Shown: in pieces, positions 4,236-32,000 of the stretch
Layout of the letters: each line of letters begins with the position of its first letter
Numbering within the stretch: the first letter of the stretch is position 1
NCBI RefSeq assembly: GCF_000010625.1
Contig: NC_010296.1
Span: forward strand, 390,001 to 422,000
Direction: 5' to 3'
Length of the DNA stretch: 32,000 nucleotides
From: Microcystis aeruginosa NIES-843
Lineage (GTDB): Bacteria > Cyanobacteriota > Cyanobacteriia > Cyanobacteriales > Microcystaceae
Position numbers and translations under genes: made by a program
Notes under the pieces: generated by a model
What the model was told of the DNA's origin: nothing
The model's database searches: none
Seen by the model: only the letters and a program-made list of their open reading frames with translations

Positions 4236-4406
<171 letters not shown>

Positions 4407-4423
4407 TTATTTTTATTTATTCT

Positions 4424-4546
4424 CCCCATTTCCCCACTTCCCCAATTCCCCACTTCCCCAATTCCCCACTTCCCCACTTCCCCACTTCCCCACTTCCCCA
4501 CTTCCCCATTTCCCCACTTCCCCACACTCCACTTCCCCACTTCCCA
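4424..4546. repeat. octamer tandem array CCCCACTT / CCCCAATT / CCCCATTT (G-rich on the gyrA sense strand)
   Basis: About 15 consecutive 8-nt units, each starting with CCCC. It ends 7 nt before the gyrA stop codon (4553-4555). A short related fragment occurs at 19077-19100 in inverse orientation. Confidence 0.9.
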
Positions 4547-14180: not shown

Positions 14181-14313
14181 ATTATTCAATAGATTTTGCG
14201 TCTGATCCCCCCTGCCCCCTTAATAAGGTGGGTGCCGATAGGCGGGGGGATCCCCCCTTAATCCCCCCTTGATAAGGGGGGCATCTGACAACTTTTAACA
14301 CCTAACTACTTAA
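14181..14313. mobile_element. TTAAGT-ended MITE with full palindromic module (copy C, left arm truncated)
   Basis: GATCCCCCCTGCCCCCTTAATAAGGTGGGTGCCGATAGGCGGGGGGATC, then CCCCCCTTGATAAGGGGGG...AACACCTAACTACTTAA. It begins immediately after the crcB paralog 2 stop. Confidence 0.7.
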
Positions 14314-14359
14314 GCATCTCAGCACAATTGAGACTATCTTTTTCCTTTCCTACTCAGTC

Positions 14360-21431: not shown

Positions 21432-21575
21432 TTAAGTAGCTGGTTATAATTAAATTAAAAATCGATTTTAGGTTCGATCCCCCCTGCCCCCCTTGATAAG
21501 GTAGGGTTGATTCATGAATCAACCCTACCCTTGATAAGGGGGGTGTCTGATAATTTTTAACGCCTACCTACTTAA
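21432..21575. mobile_element. TTAAGT-ended MITE (copy B) with a nested 28-nt perfect palindrome
   Basis: TTAAGTAGCTGGTTATAATTAAATT...GATCCCCCCTGCCCCCCTTGATAAG, then GTAGGGTTGATTCATGAATCAACCCTAC, then CCTTGATAAGGGGGGTGTCTGATAA...CCTACCTACTTAA. Confidence 0.8.
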
Positions 21576-21746
21576 GTACAATCAAGAAAAATTATCAAAT
21601 TTCCCAATCGTTATTTGCCCTTGCCATTGATCAAATCTATTGTCATCATAGACTAAAATCTAGATGTAGCCGATGTCTAGATATCGATCGAGCCAGAATT
21701 GTTATGATAAATTCATGAAGTTTTATAACGGTATTTCCCCGTGAAC

Positions 21747-22740: not shown

Positions 22741-22926
22741 CTACTGTCCGAATTCTATTCTAGCCTGTTCTACCATTTCCACGGTAACTCGATCGGAACC
22801 GGCATGACGAGCTAATTCTTCTATCCTTTGACGCGCTTGGGAACGAACAAAATAGGGAATATTTTTCAGTTTTGCTTTTGCTTCTGCGGTCCATTGTAGT
22901 TGATCGGAAAAATCTAGAGCTTCCAT
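22741..22926 (-). CDS. small PCP-reductase-family protein (similar to the C-terminal domain of protochlorophyllide reductase subunit B)
   Basis: 61 aa. [30 protein letters not shown] matches my recollection of that small domain family. Confidence 0.65.
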
Positions 22927-23752
22927 AGATTTAACATATAGTAGTCCGTCTATTATACCAAAAAAGATTAGCTATTTATTAAAAAGCTGATTAAATGATG
23001 AGTTTCTTGATAGCGACCTTTTCCTGCTCAATTCCGTTCTCAATCTCTTTCACCTTTCTTTTAATTTTAGGTTTCTGCTAGGTCGAAATTGACTCTTTGA
23101 TATAAATCTTGAAAAGAAATCTGCCAATCCACCGACACCAATTGTAAAACCGCATTTTCCCCCGTGACGAAATCAATTAACCATTGATCATCCTTTTGTT
23201 TATAGTAAAGTTCCACACTATAACTAGATTGTTCGATCAGAATATATTCCTGAAAAGTTGGCAAGGAACGATAGAATTTAAACTTATCCCCTCGGTCATA
23301 AGCTTGGGTAGAATTAGAGAGAACTTCGACAATAATTAAAGGATTGATCACGTTAGATTGACTATTCCCTTGATAGAGAGGTTGACCTTTAATCACCATC
23401 ACATCGGGATAGGTGTAAATACTATAATCTGACAGCCATAAACGCACCGTTTCCATGTAGGTATAATAATCTTGATTATTGATAGTCAGAGGAAATCTTC
23501 GATAGAAGTTTCCAGCAATCTGATTGTGATTAGTGGTAGCTCCTACCATTGGGATAATTTCTCCTTGACGATATTCATTTTTATCTTCGGACGTTTCCTC
23601 CAGAGCTAGATATTCTTCGGGAGTATAATATTTAGTTTCGGTAGCGCTTAACATTTTTGACTCTCCTTCCTATTCTATTTTCTAGGATACAGCATTTCCC
23701 TAAAAAGAGACAAAGTTATCCTTGAGGAAGGTTATCAATTGAGTGGCTCGGA
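22829..23752. repeat. tandem segmental duplication, unit 1 (924 bp)
   Basis: Collinear with 23784-24674. Covers the 5' third of the PCP-reductase-like gene, the intergenic region, an Uma2 gene and its upstream region. Confidence 0.9.
23067..23654 (-). CDS. Uma2-family (DUF820) putative endonuclease, copy 1
   Basis: 195 aa. YTPEEYLALEETSEDKNEYRQGEIIPM and DVMVI...PLIIVEVLSNST...D...K...Y fit the PD-(D/E)xK-like Uma2 pattern common in cyanobacteria. Confidence 0.85.
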   Translation of the reverse strand: MLSATETKYYTPEEYLALEETSEDKNEYRQGEIIPMVGATTNHNQIAGNFYRRFPLTINNQDYYTYMETVRLWLSDYSIYTYPDVMVIKGQPLYQGNSQSNVINPLIIVEVLSNSTQAYDRGDKFKFYRSLPTFQEYILIEQSSYSVELYYKQKDDQWLIDFVTGENAVLQLVSVDWQISFQDLYQRVNFDLAET

Positions 23753-23783
23753 AAAGTGTATCTTAAATATCTCAGTAATCCGC

Positions 23784-23875
23784 TGACGCGCTTAGGAACG
23801 AACAAAATAGGGAATATTTTTTAGTTTTGCTTTTGCGGTCCATTGTAGTTGATCGGAAAAATCTAGAGCGTCCGT
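23784..23875 (-). pseudogene. duplicated 5' fragment of the PCP-reductase-like gene, start codon lost
   Basis: Matches 22829-22926 but carries a 6-nt deletion, and ATG has become ACG (CAT at 22924-22926 against CGT at 23873-23875). Confidence 0.7.
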
Positions 23876-23988
23876 AGATTTAACAATAGTAGTCCGTCTA
23901 TTATACCAAAAAAGATTAGCTATTTATTGCCAAGCTAATTAAATGATGAGTTTCTTGATAGCGACTCTTTTTCACCTTTCTTTTAATT

Positions 23989-24576
23989 TTAGGTTTCTGC
24001 TAGGTCGAAATTTACTCTTTGATATAAATCTTGAAAAGAAATCTGCCAATCTACCGACACCAATTGTAAAACCGCATTTTCCCCCGTGACGAAATCAATT
24101 AACCATTGATCATCCTTTTGTTTATAGTAACGTTCCACACTATAACTAGATTGTTCGATCAGAATATATTCCTGAAAAGTTGGCAAGGAACGATAGAATT
24201 TAAACTTATCCCCTCGATCATAAGCTTGGGTAGAATTGGAGAGAATTTCGACAATAATTAAAGGATTGATCACGTTAGATTGACTATTGCCTTGATAGAG
24301 AGGTTGACCTTGAATCACCATCACATCGGGATAGGTGTAAATGCTATAATCTGATAGCCATAAACGCACCGTTTCCATATAGGTATAATAATCTTGATTA
24401 TTGATATTTAAGGGAAAATTACGGCAAAAATTTAGACAAATCTGATTGTGATTAGTGGTGGCTCCTACCATTGGGATAATTTCTCCTTGACGATATTCAT
24501 TTTTATCTTCGGATGTTTCCTCCAGAGCTAGATATTCTTCGGGAGTATAATATTTAGTTTCAGTAGCGCTTAACAT
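23989..24576 (-). CDS. Uma2-family (DUF820) putative endonuclease, copy 2
   Basis: 195 aa, with 10 substitutions relative to copy 1. Six of them cluster at residues 47-58 (IAGNFYRRFPLTIN versus ICLNFCRNFPLNIN). Confidence 0.85.
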   Translation of the reverse strand: MLSATETKYYTPEEYLALEETSEDKNEYRQGEIIPMVGATTNHNQICLNFCRNFPLNINNQDYYTYMETVRLWLSDYSIYTYPDVMVIQGQPLYQGNSQSNVINPLIIVEILSNSTQAYDRGDKFKFYRSLPTFQEYILIEQSSYSVERYYKQKDDQWLIDFVTGENAVLQLVSVDWQISFQDLYQRVNFDLAET

Positions 24577-27706: not shown

Positions 27707-28987
27707 ATGAATTCAGAAGATTTTAATGTTTTACCCCTTGACAAAATGACAGACTTACCCAATGAATCTGTCGAAGAATTTAGTTTTGACGATCTCTGGA
27801 ACGATCGCCCAGTAGAGAATCCGCTGCCATCGGCAATCGCCCCCGAAGGCGAATTAGTTCCCGCAGCGCAGGCGCAACCCCTGCGGGCAGAAATCGAGGC
27901 TCTAGAACGGCAAAAACAGAGCCTAGCGGCAGAAATATCGGCGTTAAAAGCGGAAAAAGAACGCTTGATCGCCGAGGAACTAGGAGATATCAAAGCTCAA
28001 ATCGAAAGAATGCTCAAGGAAGGCGTAAAAGACCTAGAACAACGCAAACAGGCTTTAGAATTGGCGATCGAACAGTTAGAACGCCGTCGTGAGCGTATTC
28101 GGCAGGAAATGCGGAGTAATTTCGCCGGAGTCTCCCAGGACATAGCCGTGCGGGTTCAGGGATTTAAAGACTATCTGGTGGGCAGTTTACAGGATTTGGC
28201 TGCGGCTGCCGAACAGTTGGAATTACCCCGTTTTGAAACCCCCGAAAAATCCCCCCGCTCCGTGGAACCTCCCCTGCGGACCGAACGGGAGGAAAACCCG
28301 CGCCCATCCCGTGGCAGTCAAGGCCGGGATGATCGCGAAGAAAGTCCCCGTCCTTCCCGCACCAGTAACCAAGGCCGGGATAATTGGCAAGAACCCCGTC
28401 GTTCTAACCGTTCCGGTTATGAATCGGAACCGGTGGGGCAATCCACCCCTAGACAGGGCTTTTCTGACCAAAATCAGCGCATCCAAGCTCTTTTAGACCG
28501 TTATCGCAGTCGTCCTGATTATTACGGTCCCCCTTGGCAACTACGGCGCACTTTTGAACCAATTCACGCCGAACGGGTGCAACAGTGGTTCTTTAAACAG
28601 GGAGGCCGGGGTACTGTTCGCGGTATGGGCAGCCGTCTCCAGAATATTCTGGTCGCTTCGGCAATTATCTCGATTATGGCGGAATTACAGGGCGATCGCT
28701 TCCGTTCTCTAGTTCTGGCTAATAGTCCCGAACGTTTAGGCGAATGGCGGCGCGGCCTCCAAGATTGTCTCGGCATTTCCCGCGCCGATTTTGGACCAGA
28801 CCGCGGCATCGTTCTCTTTGAGTCTCCCGAAGCTTTAATTCAAAAAGCGGAACGTTTAATCGAGGATAAGTATTCACCGCTCATTATCATCGATGATACC
28901 GAAGAACGGCTCAATTTCGCTCTTTTACAATTCCCCTACTGGTTAGCTTTTGCCCCTGAACCCCAACAAAGTTCTAGTTATTGGTAA
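27707..28987 (+). CDS. coiled-coil protein with Arg/Pro-rich internal repeat and conserved C-terminal domain (hypothetical)
   Basis: 426 aa. Heptad-like region AEIEALERQKQSLAAEISALKAEKERL...; repeat EENPRPSRGSQGRDDR / EESPRPSRTSNQGRDN; globular C-terminus. Family name not verified. Confidence 0.6.
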   Translation: MNSEDFNVLPLDKMTDLPNESVEEFSFDDLWNDRPVENPLPSAIAPEGELVPAAQAQPLRAEIEALERQKQSLAAEISALKAEKERLIAEELGDIKAQIERMLKEGVKDLEQRKQALELAIEQLERRRERIRQEMRSNFAGVSQDIAVRVQGFKDYLVGSLQDLAAAAEQLELPRFETPEKSPRSVEPPLRTEREENPRPSRGSQGRDDREESPRPSRTSNQGRDNWQEPRRSNRSGYESEPVGQSTPRQGFSDQNQRIQALLDRYRSRPDYYGPPWQLRRTFEPIHAERVQQWFFKQGGRGTVRGMGSRLQNILVASAIISIMAELQGDRFRSLVLANSPERLGEWRRGLQDCLGISRADFGPDRGIVLFESPEALIQKAERLIEDKYSPLIIIDDTEERLNFALLQFPYWLAFAPEPQQSSSYW

Positions 28988-29087: not shown

Positions 29088-29139
29088 TGTCTCCCGTCTC
29101 CCGTCTCGGAGTCTCCTGTCTCGGAGTCTCCTGTCTCGA
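29088..29139. repeat. short tandem repeats (GTCTCCC / GTCTCGGAGTCTCCT units)
   Basis: tgtctcccgtctcccgtctcggagtctcctgtctcggagtctcctgtctcg. Related, in reverse complement, to the AGGAGAC units at 4236-4406. Confidence 0.85.
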
Positions 29140-29232
29140 CTAGGAAATTAATTTTGCACGACTACTTATTAACTAATTAGGGTCTGCGGCAAAAAGTTTT
29201 TCCTGGGGGCAGGGTGTAGGGTGTAGGGTGTG

Positions 29233-30106
29233 GTGCGATTCGTTGGCTAGAAACTAGACAGTAAGACGTTTAGAGGATTAGCCGCTTGGTAAATGTAGTA
29301 CCTTGATAACTTTATAACCCTACAGGTGCGGGTTAGTAATAACCTTAGTCCTGTCCTCTAGATGCCTAGAGTGACGGCATTTCCTGCTGCTTTAGACTTG
29401 GTACATCTGAGGTAGTGAGCGAGGAAAAAAAAGCGGTATCTGATAGCCTAAATCAGAAACCCGTTGAGCCAGAACCTATGGATAGCCCTGGGGCGAAGAT
29501 ACGAATTAACCATCGTCAACACCCACGAGCCAAAAGGCTGACAGGCTCGAAACAAAAGTTAACAGAGTTGGGGCTGATAGCTCATACCACTATCAGTAAG
29601 GCATTCCCGTTACTCTGTTGTGGACAGTATCATCCTAAGGGTTCAACCAATGGTTATAGGGAACGAAGTAACCCTGATTGACTCTGCCCGTTCGGGGCAG
29701 TAGGAAACCATCCGCAAGTCAATAGAGGGAGAGGATGTCCTTAAAAGCCAAGGCTTTGAGTAATATCAAAGATATGCTGACAAAGGACGGGTAACTAGGA
29801 AGTCTAAGCAACAATCAACGGTCATAAGCTAAACGGCGCTTAACCTGCATGATCCAATAGCTATAACTCTTTTGGAGTCTATATCGGTGATCCGAAGTAA
29901 AAGCCGTTTAGCTTATACGCCCTAAAACCAACAATCTTGTCTGGTGGGGATACAGCCAAGAGGGTTGAATAGACAAGGAAATAATAATTCCCATTATTAT
30001 TCTACTAATGACAGTAGCCTAGTTACTCAGGAGCCGGATACGGCGAAAGTCGTAAGTCCGGTTTTGAAGCAGGGGGTGGGAAGGCGACTTCCTGCTCTAC
30101 TGTAAC
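29233..30106 (+). ncRNA. ORF-less group II intron ribozyme (copy 1, complete)
   Basis: 5' GUGCG at 29233. Domain V at 30031-30064 (GAGCCGGAUACGGC-GAAA-GUCGUAAGUCCGGUUU: AGC triad, 9 bp, AA bulge, 5 bp, GNRA loop). Domain VI at 30070-30102 with bulged A 30099, 7 nt from the ...AC 3' end at 30106. Tetraloop receptor halves UAUGG 29477-29481 and CCUAAG 29634-29639, closed by GAACC/GGUUC. No RT ORF. Confidence 0.8.
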
Positions 30107-30616
30107 GGGTTTTACCGATTTTGAGGTGGTCAATTACCTAATTTTCAGGGAAAAAGTACCTGAATTTTCCCCCCGATCACTCCCATGCCAGGCACTTTTT
30201 GATTTCAAAAAAGCCTAAAGATATTATCCAACAAGGTTTTTAGATTTATTCAGCAAACCCTAAATATTTTACACAATTCATACCAGGTAAGCAAGAGGGC
30301 TACACCACTACTACCGAATCATTACCCGCCCTCTTTGAACAACTTCTGCTGCTCACCATAAGTGAGAGAAAATCACAAATAGGAGATGCACCCGGTTATG
30401 CCTGCTACGAATAAAGAAAAATGGTATTAGTTTTCCTTACGGGGGGGATATAGCTTAAAACGGGTGATTTCTCGGTTATCCAAGCGGTAAACTTTGATTG
30501 AGGATCAATTGGGGACGTAAGCGACGGAGTTTGCGTCTCTTTGTTATAATTCAAAGGCTAGGCTATAATAAATCTTCATAAACACCGATAATTTTAGTCA
30601 AAGATGTAAAAAAAGG

Positions 30617-30854: not shown

Positions 30855-31052
30855 AAATCATTGGGAGCATCTCACCTTTGCAATGAGCATAAATACTTAG
30901 TGGAAAAATAGGCTTTTCGAGGGTAATTCTTGTTTTAATTCTCCATGTACGCAGTCTTTAAAAGCCTCTATTTCGTTCCAAGACACGATTAAGAGTGGCT
31001 TTTAGGCTAAGTATAATTACTTATCGCGTAAGTGAGATGCTCCCAAATCATT
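30855..31052. repeat. inverted-repeat-bounded segment upstream of the antitoxin gene
   Basis: TGGGAGCATCTCAC (30862-30875) is a perfect inverted repeat of GTGAGATGCTCCCA (31032-31045), with partial extension to about 20 nt. The interior holds only a short minus-strand ORF fragment (...SWNEIEAFKDCVHGELKQELPSKSLFFH*). Confidence 0.35.
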
Positions 31053-31613: not shown

Positions 31614-31793
31614 ACGATCAACAAGAGTATAATAGAGTATAATTGTTATAGAATAAGCACTTTACGTTGAAAGAGCGGCGATGAAAGAGACAACCCCAGC
31701 TGCGATGCCTCCCTGCTTTGACCGATGGTGTCGGCGGTTTGACAATTGCTTCAAAAACGAAGCGCAAAAAAACGGCTTCAGACAATATTTAGG
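31604..31793 (+). mobile_element. IS701-family-like IS, second copy, 5' 190 bp only
   Basis: It starts with the same TIR TGGGACTTAAAC. ATG at 31681 encodes MKETTPAAMPPCFDRWCRRFDNCFKNEAQKNGFRQYLG, identical to the first 38 aa of the 16368-17636 transposase. Homology stops abruptly at 31793/31794. Confidence 0.88.
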
Positions 31794-31843
31794 GTCTGCT
31801 GAAAAAGTTTTTCCTAGGGGCAGGGTGTAGGGTGTGGGGTGTG

Positions 31844-32000
31844 GTGCGATTCGTTGGCTAGAAACTAGACAGTAAGACGTTTAGAGGATTAGCCGCTTGG
31901 TAAATGTAGTACCTTGATAACTTTATAACCCTACAGGTGCGGGTTAGTAATAACCTTAGTCCTGTCCTCTAGATGCCTAGAGTGACGGCATTTCCTGCTG
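31844..32000 (+). ncRNA. ORF-less group II intron, copy 2 (5' 157 nt; runs off the window)
   Basis: 31844-32000 is identical base for base to 29233-29389, and is preceded by the same 50-52 nt leader with 4 differences. Confidence 0.8.

Follow-up and report, generated by a model that had tools for sequence, protein, structure and literature searches.

A protein-less group II intron of Microcystis with guide sequences matched to GGGTGTR heptamer arrays

The locus, the intron and its empty alleles

We analysed a 32,000-nt stretch of Microcystis aeruginosa NIES-843 (contig NC_010296.1, positions 390,001 to 422,000, forward strand), hereafter the window, whose own numbering is used for all coordinates unless another locus (L with a number) is named. 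Beside the gene for a DUF3086 protein (27707-28987), the window carries a group II intron of the IIB type that has no protein-coding open reading frame (ORF), here called copy 1, and the beginning of a second copy reaches the window's end (Table 1). Copy 1 sits in a short tandem array of the heptamer GGGTGTR, and this array in turn is part of a MITE, or miniature inverted-repeat transposable element.

Copy 1 is 874 nt long, and the common form of the intron in other copies has 784-785 nt. Its termini, GUGCG at the 5' end and AAC at the 3' end, follow the GUGYG/AY rule. The Rfam model RF00029, which covers domains V and VI (DV and DVI), scored 55 bits at 30029-30106, above its gathering score of 40 (E = 2.3e-8), and in both the Rfam alignment and the minimum free energy (MFE) fold A30099 is left unpaired in the DVI helix, 7 nt 5' of the 3' splice site. 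The unconstrained MFE fold returned a layout resembling domains 1 to 6 (D1-D6), and the comparative check of this layout covered the D1 d''/d''' region and DV/DVI. No ORF longer than 88 aa was found in copy 1, and the longest, without similarity to reverse transcriptases (RTs), is spurious. As the RT/maturase that mobile group II introns encode is missing from it, copy 1 can be mobile only in trans. Its domain IV (DIV) is interrupted by a palindromic mini-element (AGCTAAACGGC…GCCGTTTAGCT), which was seen only in copy 1 and is missing from copies L121-L127, L138, L139 and L148. A 99% identical copy of this mini-element stands elsewhere in L128 (6261-6352), on the opposite strand. The second intron copy and its 5' flank lie within a 199-nt direct repeat (31802-32000 against 29191-29389, 99% identity).

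Without the intron, the MITE measures about 215 nt. It is short and non-coding, was seen in at least 10 copies, ends in the terminal inverted repeats GGGTCTGCKG and CAGCMARCCC and is flanked by a target duplication, as expected of a MITE. It was found free of the intron in L128-L130, and again at a second site in L129 (M. viridis NIES-102). In the window, a second MITE copy starting at about 31792 interrupts an ORF for an IS701/DDE_5-type transposase that begins near 31683. The roughly 50 nt common to the upstream sides of both intron copies had been considered as the target; this candidate was rejected, the stretch being the MITE left arm that carries the array.

Intron-free alleles were sought by looking up the flanking DUF3086 protein in other assemblies. 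In six Microcystis assemblies (L128-L130, L132, L134 and L135) position 29232 is fused directly to 30107 (…GGGTGTAGGGTGTAGGGTGTG/GGGTTTTACC…, the slash marking the junction), with the array uninterrupted and intact. Among them is the chromosome of M. viridis NIES-102 (L129), whose flanking protein is identical to one on AP019314.1. The same chromosome is also intron-free at the site of copy 2, where four repeat units are followed by GGGTTTTACC. By comparison, the metagenome contig L131 is occupied as in the window. Hence, the 5' splice site is 29233 and the intron spans 29233-30106. The presence/absence polymorphism thus falls precisely on the splice junctions.

These alleles settle a choice that an earlier reading of the window, made from its sequence alone (the sequence-only reading), had already made in the same way, namely 29233 as the 5' splice site instead of a second GUGCG at 29326. 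If 29326 were the true site, the 93 nt upstream and the heptamers would be mere exon. The pentamer does exist there, and the fragment L013 is without a 47-nt stretch that includes it. However, the segment missing from the empty alleles begins at 29233, the stretch 29233-29252 is conserved throughout the family as its 5' end and stands at the start of at least 120 introns, and the first 96 nt or so align to D1 of relatives. The use of 29326 is therefore refuted by the intron-free alleles and has practically no probability left, the second GUGCG being internal to D1. The empty arrays in related strains that the same reading had recommended searching for are thus at hand for both copies.

Guide sequences, heptamer target and neighbouring repeats

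The sequence-only reading had proposed ACACCC and CAUACC as exon-binding sites 2 and 1 (EBS2 and EBS1), pairing with GGGUGU and GGUGUG upstream of the intron as the intron-binding sites IBS2 and IBS1. All four hexamers are present, ACACCC pairing perfectly and CAUACC with one G-U pair, and both guides are bracketed by the two halves of the tetraloop receptor. The arrangement of IBS2, two nucleotides and IBS1 recurs in front of copy 2. The same reading had warned that six-nucleotide matches can arise by chance, and this was well founded. When the 152 nt separating the receptor halves were shuffled 20,000 times, 27% of the shuffled sequences had a match like EBS1, 4.6% had one like EBS2, and 0.5% had the two in the correct order. 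The hexamer matches alone are suggestive; it is the comparison with related introns, together with the insertion junctions and the empty sites, that makes the EBS/IBS assignment a result.

For this comparison, 76 non-redundant members of the family were aligned over their first 520 nt. In 31 of 61 relatives, the hexamer in the EBS1 column paired at five or more of six positions with the six bases that end the 5' exon of the same intron, as against 6% for mismatched exons, and 29 distinct EBS1/IBS1 combinations were met. For the EBS2 column, the own upstream exon was paired at the same threshold in 37 of 76 relatives against 12% for mismatched exons, with a best-fit spacer of 2 nt in most. The guide columns therefore covary with each relative's own 5' exon, and EBS1 and EBS2 lie where the sequence-only reading had put them. 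RNAalifold on 47 relatives showed EBS1 as part of a hairpin's terminal loop and EBS2 directly 5' of another hairpin within an enclosing helix, and the MFE fold of the window intron also has EBS1 in a terminal loop. The EBS1 stem covaries in these 47 relatives, with 4-22 double changes per pair. The helices flanking EBS1 and EBS2 were 96.5% paired, compared with 21-47% when the partners were slid by 1-3 columns; double changes occurred in 16 of 19 pairs, and the observed values were not reached in any of 500 shuffles. Within the Microcystis subfamily itself covariation was uninformative, because all variants of the 88-aa ORF keep the EBS1/EBS2 codons except one with an H-to-Y change. This exception is a UAUACC variant in the truncated copy L147, whose 5' exon is missing.

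A column scan of D1 pointed to the third guide. C29625 was the only column with complete Watson-Crick complementarity to the first 3'-exon base (19/19 relatives). The scan took in 20 sequences, the window's among them, and their first 3'-exon base was G in 8 cases, A in 7 and C in 5. On this comparative evidence C29625 is assigned as EBS3 in a coordination loop, separate from EBS1, which is a feature of subgroup IIB (chloroplast-like, CL, lineage).

The insertion sites were then tabulated from a junction set collected with the spurious 88-aa ORF as a handle, one metagenome scan and two protein look-ups, which yielded distinct junctions, 23 on the 5' side and 14 on the 3' side. Upstream, positions -14 to -9 read GGGTGT at all 23 junctions, position -8 is G in 15, A in 7 and T in 1, position -7 is G in 22, positions -6 to -2 read GGTGT in 21, and the base at -1 is G at 14 junctions and A at 9. 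On the 3' side, the first base is G in 14 of 14, positions +1 to +3 are GGG in 13, and GGGTGT continues in 7. These statistics place the intron inside (GGGTGTR)n arrays, between units and in one constant orientation, with 2-6 units upstream and 0-3 downstream. Hence, the heptamer array that the sequence-only reading had named as target, with a recommendation to tabulate its flanks, is borne out; its unit needs amending from GGGTGTA to GGGTGT[A/G], G being commoner than A at both -8 and -1. The metagenome scan with the intron 3' end returned nine loci only, all of the ORF-less form.

Some of the arrays lie inside the MITE and many do not. About 30-35 nt upstream of the array (TAGGGTYTGCTGAAAAAGTTTTTC…) recur at 12 of the 23 5' junctions, two of them being those of the window copies and 10 coming from the 21 others. 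These nucleotides represent the MITE left arm, and at the remaining 11 junctions the context is unrelated. At one of these, L043 (minus strand), the intron interrupts an ORF resembling S-adenosylmethionine (SAM) methyltransferases after …GMNARVLDV, directly 5' of the G-x-G motif. The coding site there, AGGGTGT-TA-GATGTA (AGGGTGTTAGATGTA), mimics the repeat and is the sole intragenic copy seen. Together, the sites in unrelated context and L043 argue for RNA-guided insertion instead of mere hitch-hiking as DNA.

The arrays had also been described as STRR-like. Short tandemly repeated repetitive (STRR) sequences are heptamers of heterocystous cyanobacteria. The likeness lies in tandem 7-nt units in cyanobacterial non-coding DNA, and to that extent the term holds. 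However, Microcystis is unicellular, and GGGTGTR is not known as one of the classical sequences, STRR1-3. 'STRR-like' is therefore descriptive and does not imply membership. Arrays of four or more GGGTGTR units fit the G-quadruplex motif G3N4G3N4G3N4G3, for example at L070 4441-4482.

Table 1. Coordinates of the intron, its guide and target sequences and the surrounding elements in the window
Feature	Position	Strand	Details
MITE hosting the array	29180-30260	.	left arm 29180-29232 (array included), right arm 30107-30260; ends GGGTCTGCGG and CAGCAAACCC; TA on both flanks
5'-exon array of copy 1	29212-29232	+	three units, GGGTGTA GGGTGTA GGGTGTG; intact in intron-free alleles
IBS2, GGGUGU	29219-29224	+	six Watson-Crick pairs with EBS2
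IBS1, GGUGUG	29227-29232	+	five Watson-Crick pairs and one G-U pair with EBS1; directly 5' of GUGCG
Group II intron, copy 1	29233-30106	+	GUGCG start, AAC end; precise segment missing from 6 other Microcystis assemblies
Tetraloop receptor (11-nt), 5' half, UAUGG	29477-29481	+	sequence; in the MFE fold, paired across the D1 d stem
EBS2, ACACCC	29519-29524	+	adjoins, on the 5' side, the covarying hairpin CGAGCC 29526-29531 / GGCUCG 29544-29549
EBS1 hairpin	29574-29596	+	stem CUGAUAG/CUAUCAG, 9-nt loop 29581-29589, EBS1 CAUACC 29583-29588
EBS3 (C)	29625	+	within GGA[C]AG, which follows the EBS1 hairpin downstream; pairs with G30107
Tetraloop receptor, 3' half, CCUAAG	29634-29639	+	sequence
Domain IV, no ORF	29789-30028	+	MFE fold
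Palindromic mini-element, 87 nt, in DIV	29827-29913	+	TA duplicated at 29825-29826 and 29914-29915
Domain V, GAAA loop	30031-30064	+	Rfam RF00029 and MFE fold
Domain VI	30069-30103	+	Rfam alignment and MFE fold; branch-point A bulged at 30099
IBS3 (G), first 3'-exon base	30107	+	complementary to C29625
5'-exon array of copy 2	31823-31843	+	IBS2 GGGTGT 31830-31835, then GG, IBS1 GGTGTG 31838-31843; inside the second MITE copy
Intron copy 2, first 157 nt	31844-32000 (window end)	+	GTGCG at 31844; within the 199-nt direct repeat with copy 1

Microcystis intergenic DNA is rich in arrays of short units, and the window holds further ones without an intron: AGGAGTC in 22.7 copies (4247-4405), TCCCCACT in 15.5 (4423-4545) and GTCTCCTGTCTCGGA in 2.9 (29096-29138). 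Another MITE, of 182 nt, occupies 30863-31044. Its terminal inverted repeats are GGGAGCATCTCAC, 8 bp of target (AAATCATT) are duplicated around it (30855-30862 and 31045-31052), and it is missing from the matching locus in NIES-102 (L129). Dispersed palindromic repeats of the form ATCCCCCCTGCCCCC…CCCTTGATAAGGGGGG were found at 2479-2573, 14188-14314 and 21460-21576, and the 3' flank of one of the intron copies (L141) consists of C-rich sequence resembling them. In addition, about 0.5 kb is duplicated in tandem (22823-23343 against 23778-24265, 93-98% identity), and this duplication overlaps two 195-aa ORFs (23067-23654 and 23989-24576).

Relatives, spread and rival explanations

Exact matches to the first 20 nt of the intron (GTGCGATTCGTTGGCTAGAA) number at least 120 in the genomes of cyanobacteria, among them Nostoc, Moorena, Scytonema, Acaryochloris and Microcystis. 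Most of these relatives are 2.3-2.8 kb long and carry an ORF of about 570-610 aa at the position of domain IV. Homologues of the intron-encoded protein (IEP) of one relative contain RVT_1, RVT_N, GIIM and HNH domains, and for the IEP of L066 the best match is Thermosynechococcus TeI4h, a maturase/RT (PDB 6ME0, E = 2.5e-101). The subfamily identical to the window intron (…AAACTAGACAGT) was found solely in Microcystis records. Seven copies from different samples were picked because their 88-aa internal ORF is identical; over the rest of the intron, too, their identity with the window copy is 99.7-100%. One metagenome-assembled genome (MAG) has at least nine intron junction contigs. Both observations fit recent spread.

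The relatives show repeated targets of other kinds. A recurrent 5' exon, …TCTCGCATCGAGACTTGTAAAGTGTAAC.TGTA directly before the intron, was seen in heterocystous genera (L007, L008, L048, L056, L058, L063, L073, L099, L108, L110 and L119) and is preceded by G-rich sequence in several loci, making it another repeated target. A further group (L002, L028, L030, L032, L035-L038, L071, L081, L083, L097, L102, L109 and L116) shares one conserved site in a protein gene, …GLMMDLAMMGC/GTGA…, which is occupied by many relatives across Nostocales, as in classic homing into a conserved gene.

We consider it likely that the window holds a ribozyme-only IIB intron whose three guides read one tandem repeat and which is mobilised in trans into GGGTGTR arrays. 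One unit offers GGGUGU to EBS2, the second offers GGUGUR, 2 nt further downstream, to EBS1, and the unit after that offers its first G to EBS3. As all three are matched in this way, any two GGGTGTR units followed by G would make a homing site. The intron would be transcribed by read-through and spliced to a lariat, an RT/maturase from another group II intron of the genome would bind this lariat in trans, and the resulting ribonucleoprotein (RNP) would reverse-splice into GGGTGTR arrays, mostly intergenic or inside the MITE, where insertion would cost the host nothing. Transposition of the MITE may then add further spread. That the intron splices, that retrohoming is its route and that a protein acts on it in trans is what we infer from the sequence comparisons. 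What the data show directly are the intron's boundaries, its EBS/IBS assignments and its preference for the heptamer target, besides the existence of several copies at multiple EBS-matching sites that are polymorphic for presence.

A helper protein would have to be supplied by the host genome, and M. aeruginosa NIES-843 was reported to encode seven group II RTs (PMC8934634). The searches for a cognate protein weigh against the trans-mobilised intron. When 161 kb of Microcystis DNA were searched by tblastn with the IEPs of four relatives, no RT turned up. A protein search that started from one relative's IEP was saturated by close relatives and gave no named match from Microcystis among the 120 matches listed, most of them listed without an organism name. 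The 53-aa ORF over DV-DVI, which corresponds to the stretch encoding the C-terminal tail of the IEP in relatives, retrieved two small Microcystis ORFs and no long IEP. The sampling is also biased, since loci were fetched because they hold the intron, and metagenome contigs may join flanks of different copies, each single junction being real. Moreover, position -1 is A at 9 of the 23 sites, giving a C.A mismatch with the EBS1 5' base, which is C in every full copy; the UAUACC variant of L147 would pair with this A. Some copies look damaged: in L147 (1-420), whose 5' exon lies off the contig, D2-D4 and DV are deleted, and in both L147 and L148 (about 1400-2270) the receptor half CCUAAGG is replaced by CAAAUACG. 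Copy 1 itself may be weakened by the 87-nt insertion in DIV, and a conserved D1 helix is weakened in the window variant, which reads ACUCUGUUGUGGAC, with UGUUG opposite CAUCG, whereas another common variant and the family consensus have CGGUG paired with CAUCG. Other searches gave an exact look-up of the 53-aa ORF without a match, a plasmid search without a Microcystis copy of the intron, and a tblastn search of DIV for IEP remnants whose only match was weak and lay in a stretch overlapping DV.

Several of these points would equally suit a dead relic, that is, a decayed family without splicing or movement whose copies are kept similar by gene conversion and whose presence/absence pattern reflects old events or deletions. 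The lack of a cognate IEP in the searches made, the C.A mismatches at -1, the weakened D1 helix and the DIV insertion all favour such a relic, as do the degraded copies L013, L033 and L147. However, full copies from different samples are nearly identical, most copies retain intact DV, DVI, EBS1-3 and receptor, the sites at which closely related strains differ have exact junctions, and the guide codons are kept throughout the spurious-ORF variants with the one exception already described. We thus regard a dead relic as unlikely. A different explanation would leave the RNA guides out of the spread altogether: copies may have travelled as MITE passengers or by recombination between arrays, so that the EBS/IBS match would record one ancestral insertion copied as DNA. 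The MITE left arm at about half of the 5' junctions speaks for it, together with the right arm at copy 1 and the single 3' flank that L125-L127 and L138 have in common behind differing 5' flanks. On the other hand, the upstream DNA at 11 of the 23 junctions is unrelated, and one of these sites is protein-coding; at two loci the MITE exists with and without the intron, the alleles differing precisely at the predicted splice junctions; and the insertion point within the arrays varies. The junction set therefore rules out MITE hitch-hiking as the sole route, and spread as copied DNA is, in our judgement, quite improbable as an account of the family. Hitch-hiking probably adds to the spread and cannot explain the sites outside the MITE.

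A more specific form of trans-mobilisation may also be considered, in which the intron belongs to an orphan ribozyme-only lineage without a cognate RT in current collections, borrows a heterologous RT to spread through populations of Microcystis and has specialised on the G-rich microsatellite (GGGTGTR)n, whose single unit serves as IBS1, IBS2 and IBS3. Intron and repeat family may then co-evolve, the arrays serving as renewable landing pads that are partly MITE-borne. We find this proposal rather doubtful.

Comparison with known systems

The usual picture of a group II intron is that it homes to a single unique site. In the present intron, canonical pairing rules would be aimed at a microsatellite, so that every array of at least two units may be a landing pad and a single unit meets all three recognition elements. 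This would be a natural answer to how a protein-less intron reaches a high copy number without harm to its host. The intron is also an overlooked part of the very plastic Microcystis mobilome, lying in a MITE within a transposase gene at one site and holding a mini-element itself at the other. Its natural occupied and empty alleles form a ready-made test system for EBS/IBS rules, and it breaks short-read Microcystis assemblies at predictable points. Our literature searches found no description of this Microcystis intron or of its GGGTGTR target.

The sequence-only reading had called aiming a ribozyme-only intron at a dispersed repeat an unusual spreading strategy. This is fair, but precedents exist, both for ORF-less introns driven in trans and for insertion sequence (IS), attC and terminator targets. 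The closest are the ORF-less TeI3 introns (CL/IIB1) of Thermosynechococcus elongatus, which are mobilised by the 'driver' IEPs of the sister TeI4 introns (Mohr, Ghanem & Lambowitz 2010, PMC2882425). Like the Microcystis intron, they are cyanobacterial, multi-copy, ORF-less and IIB-type, show good EBS/IBS pairing and occupy sites mostly outside genes, and it is again TeI4h to which the IEP of a relative of the window intron is closest. However, the EBS of TeI3 have diversified into six families with unique targets, while the Microcystis intron keeps a single EBS set and its target is a tandem repeat that supplies IBS1, IBS2 and IBS3. Furthermore, T. elongatus has ORF-containing parents in its genome and visible ORF remnants, whereas no parent was found for the Microcystis intron and its sole IEP-like remnant is the weak match overlapping DV. 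A IIB lineage adapted to one genetic niche is also represented by EcKTE56.groEL, a specialised IIB1 intron at the groEL stop codon (Gomes et al. 2025, PMC12584367); its target is single-copy, it has its own RT and its mobility was shown experimentally.

The damage-free use of many sites, as proposed here, has further parallels. Introns that home into repeated or mobile DNA include RmInt1 in ISRm2011-2, E. coli introns in IS elements, and IIC introns after terminators or in attC. They have in common with the Microcystis intron a multi-copy, non-essential target that offers many sites and leaves the host unharmed. They differ in that they recognise unique sequences in longer elements, or structural motifs with a short IBS1/IBS3, whereas the Microcystis intron is ORF-less and its 7-nt microsatellite is read by the full set of EBS1, EBS2 and EBS3. 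So, the mechanism is canonical IIB recognition, and what differs is the 7-nt tandem-repeat target, one EBS set in all copies and no visible cognate IEP.

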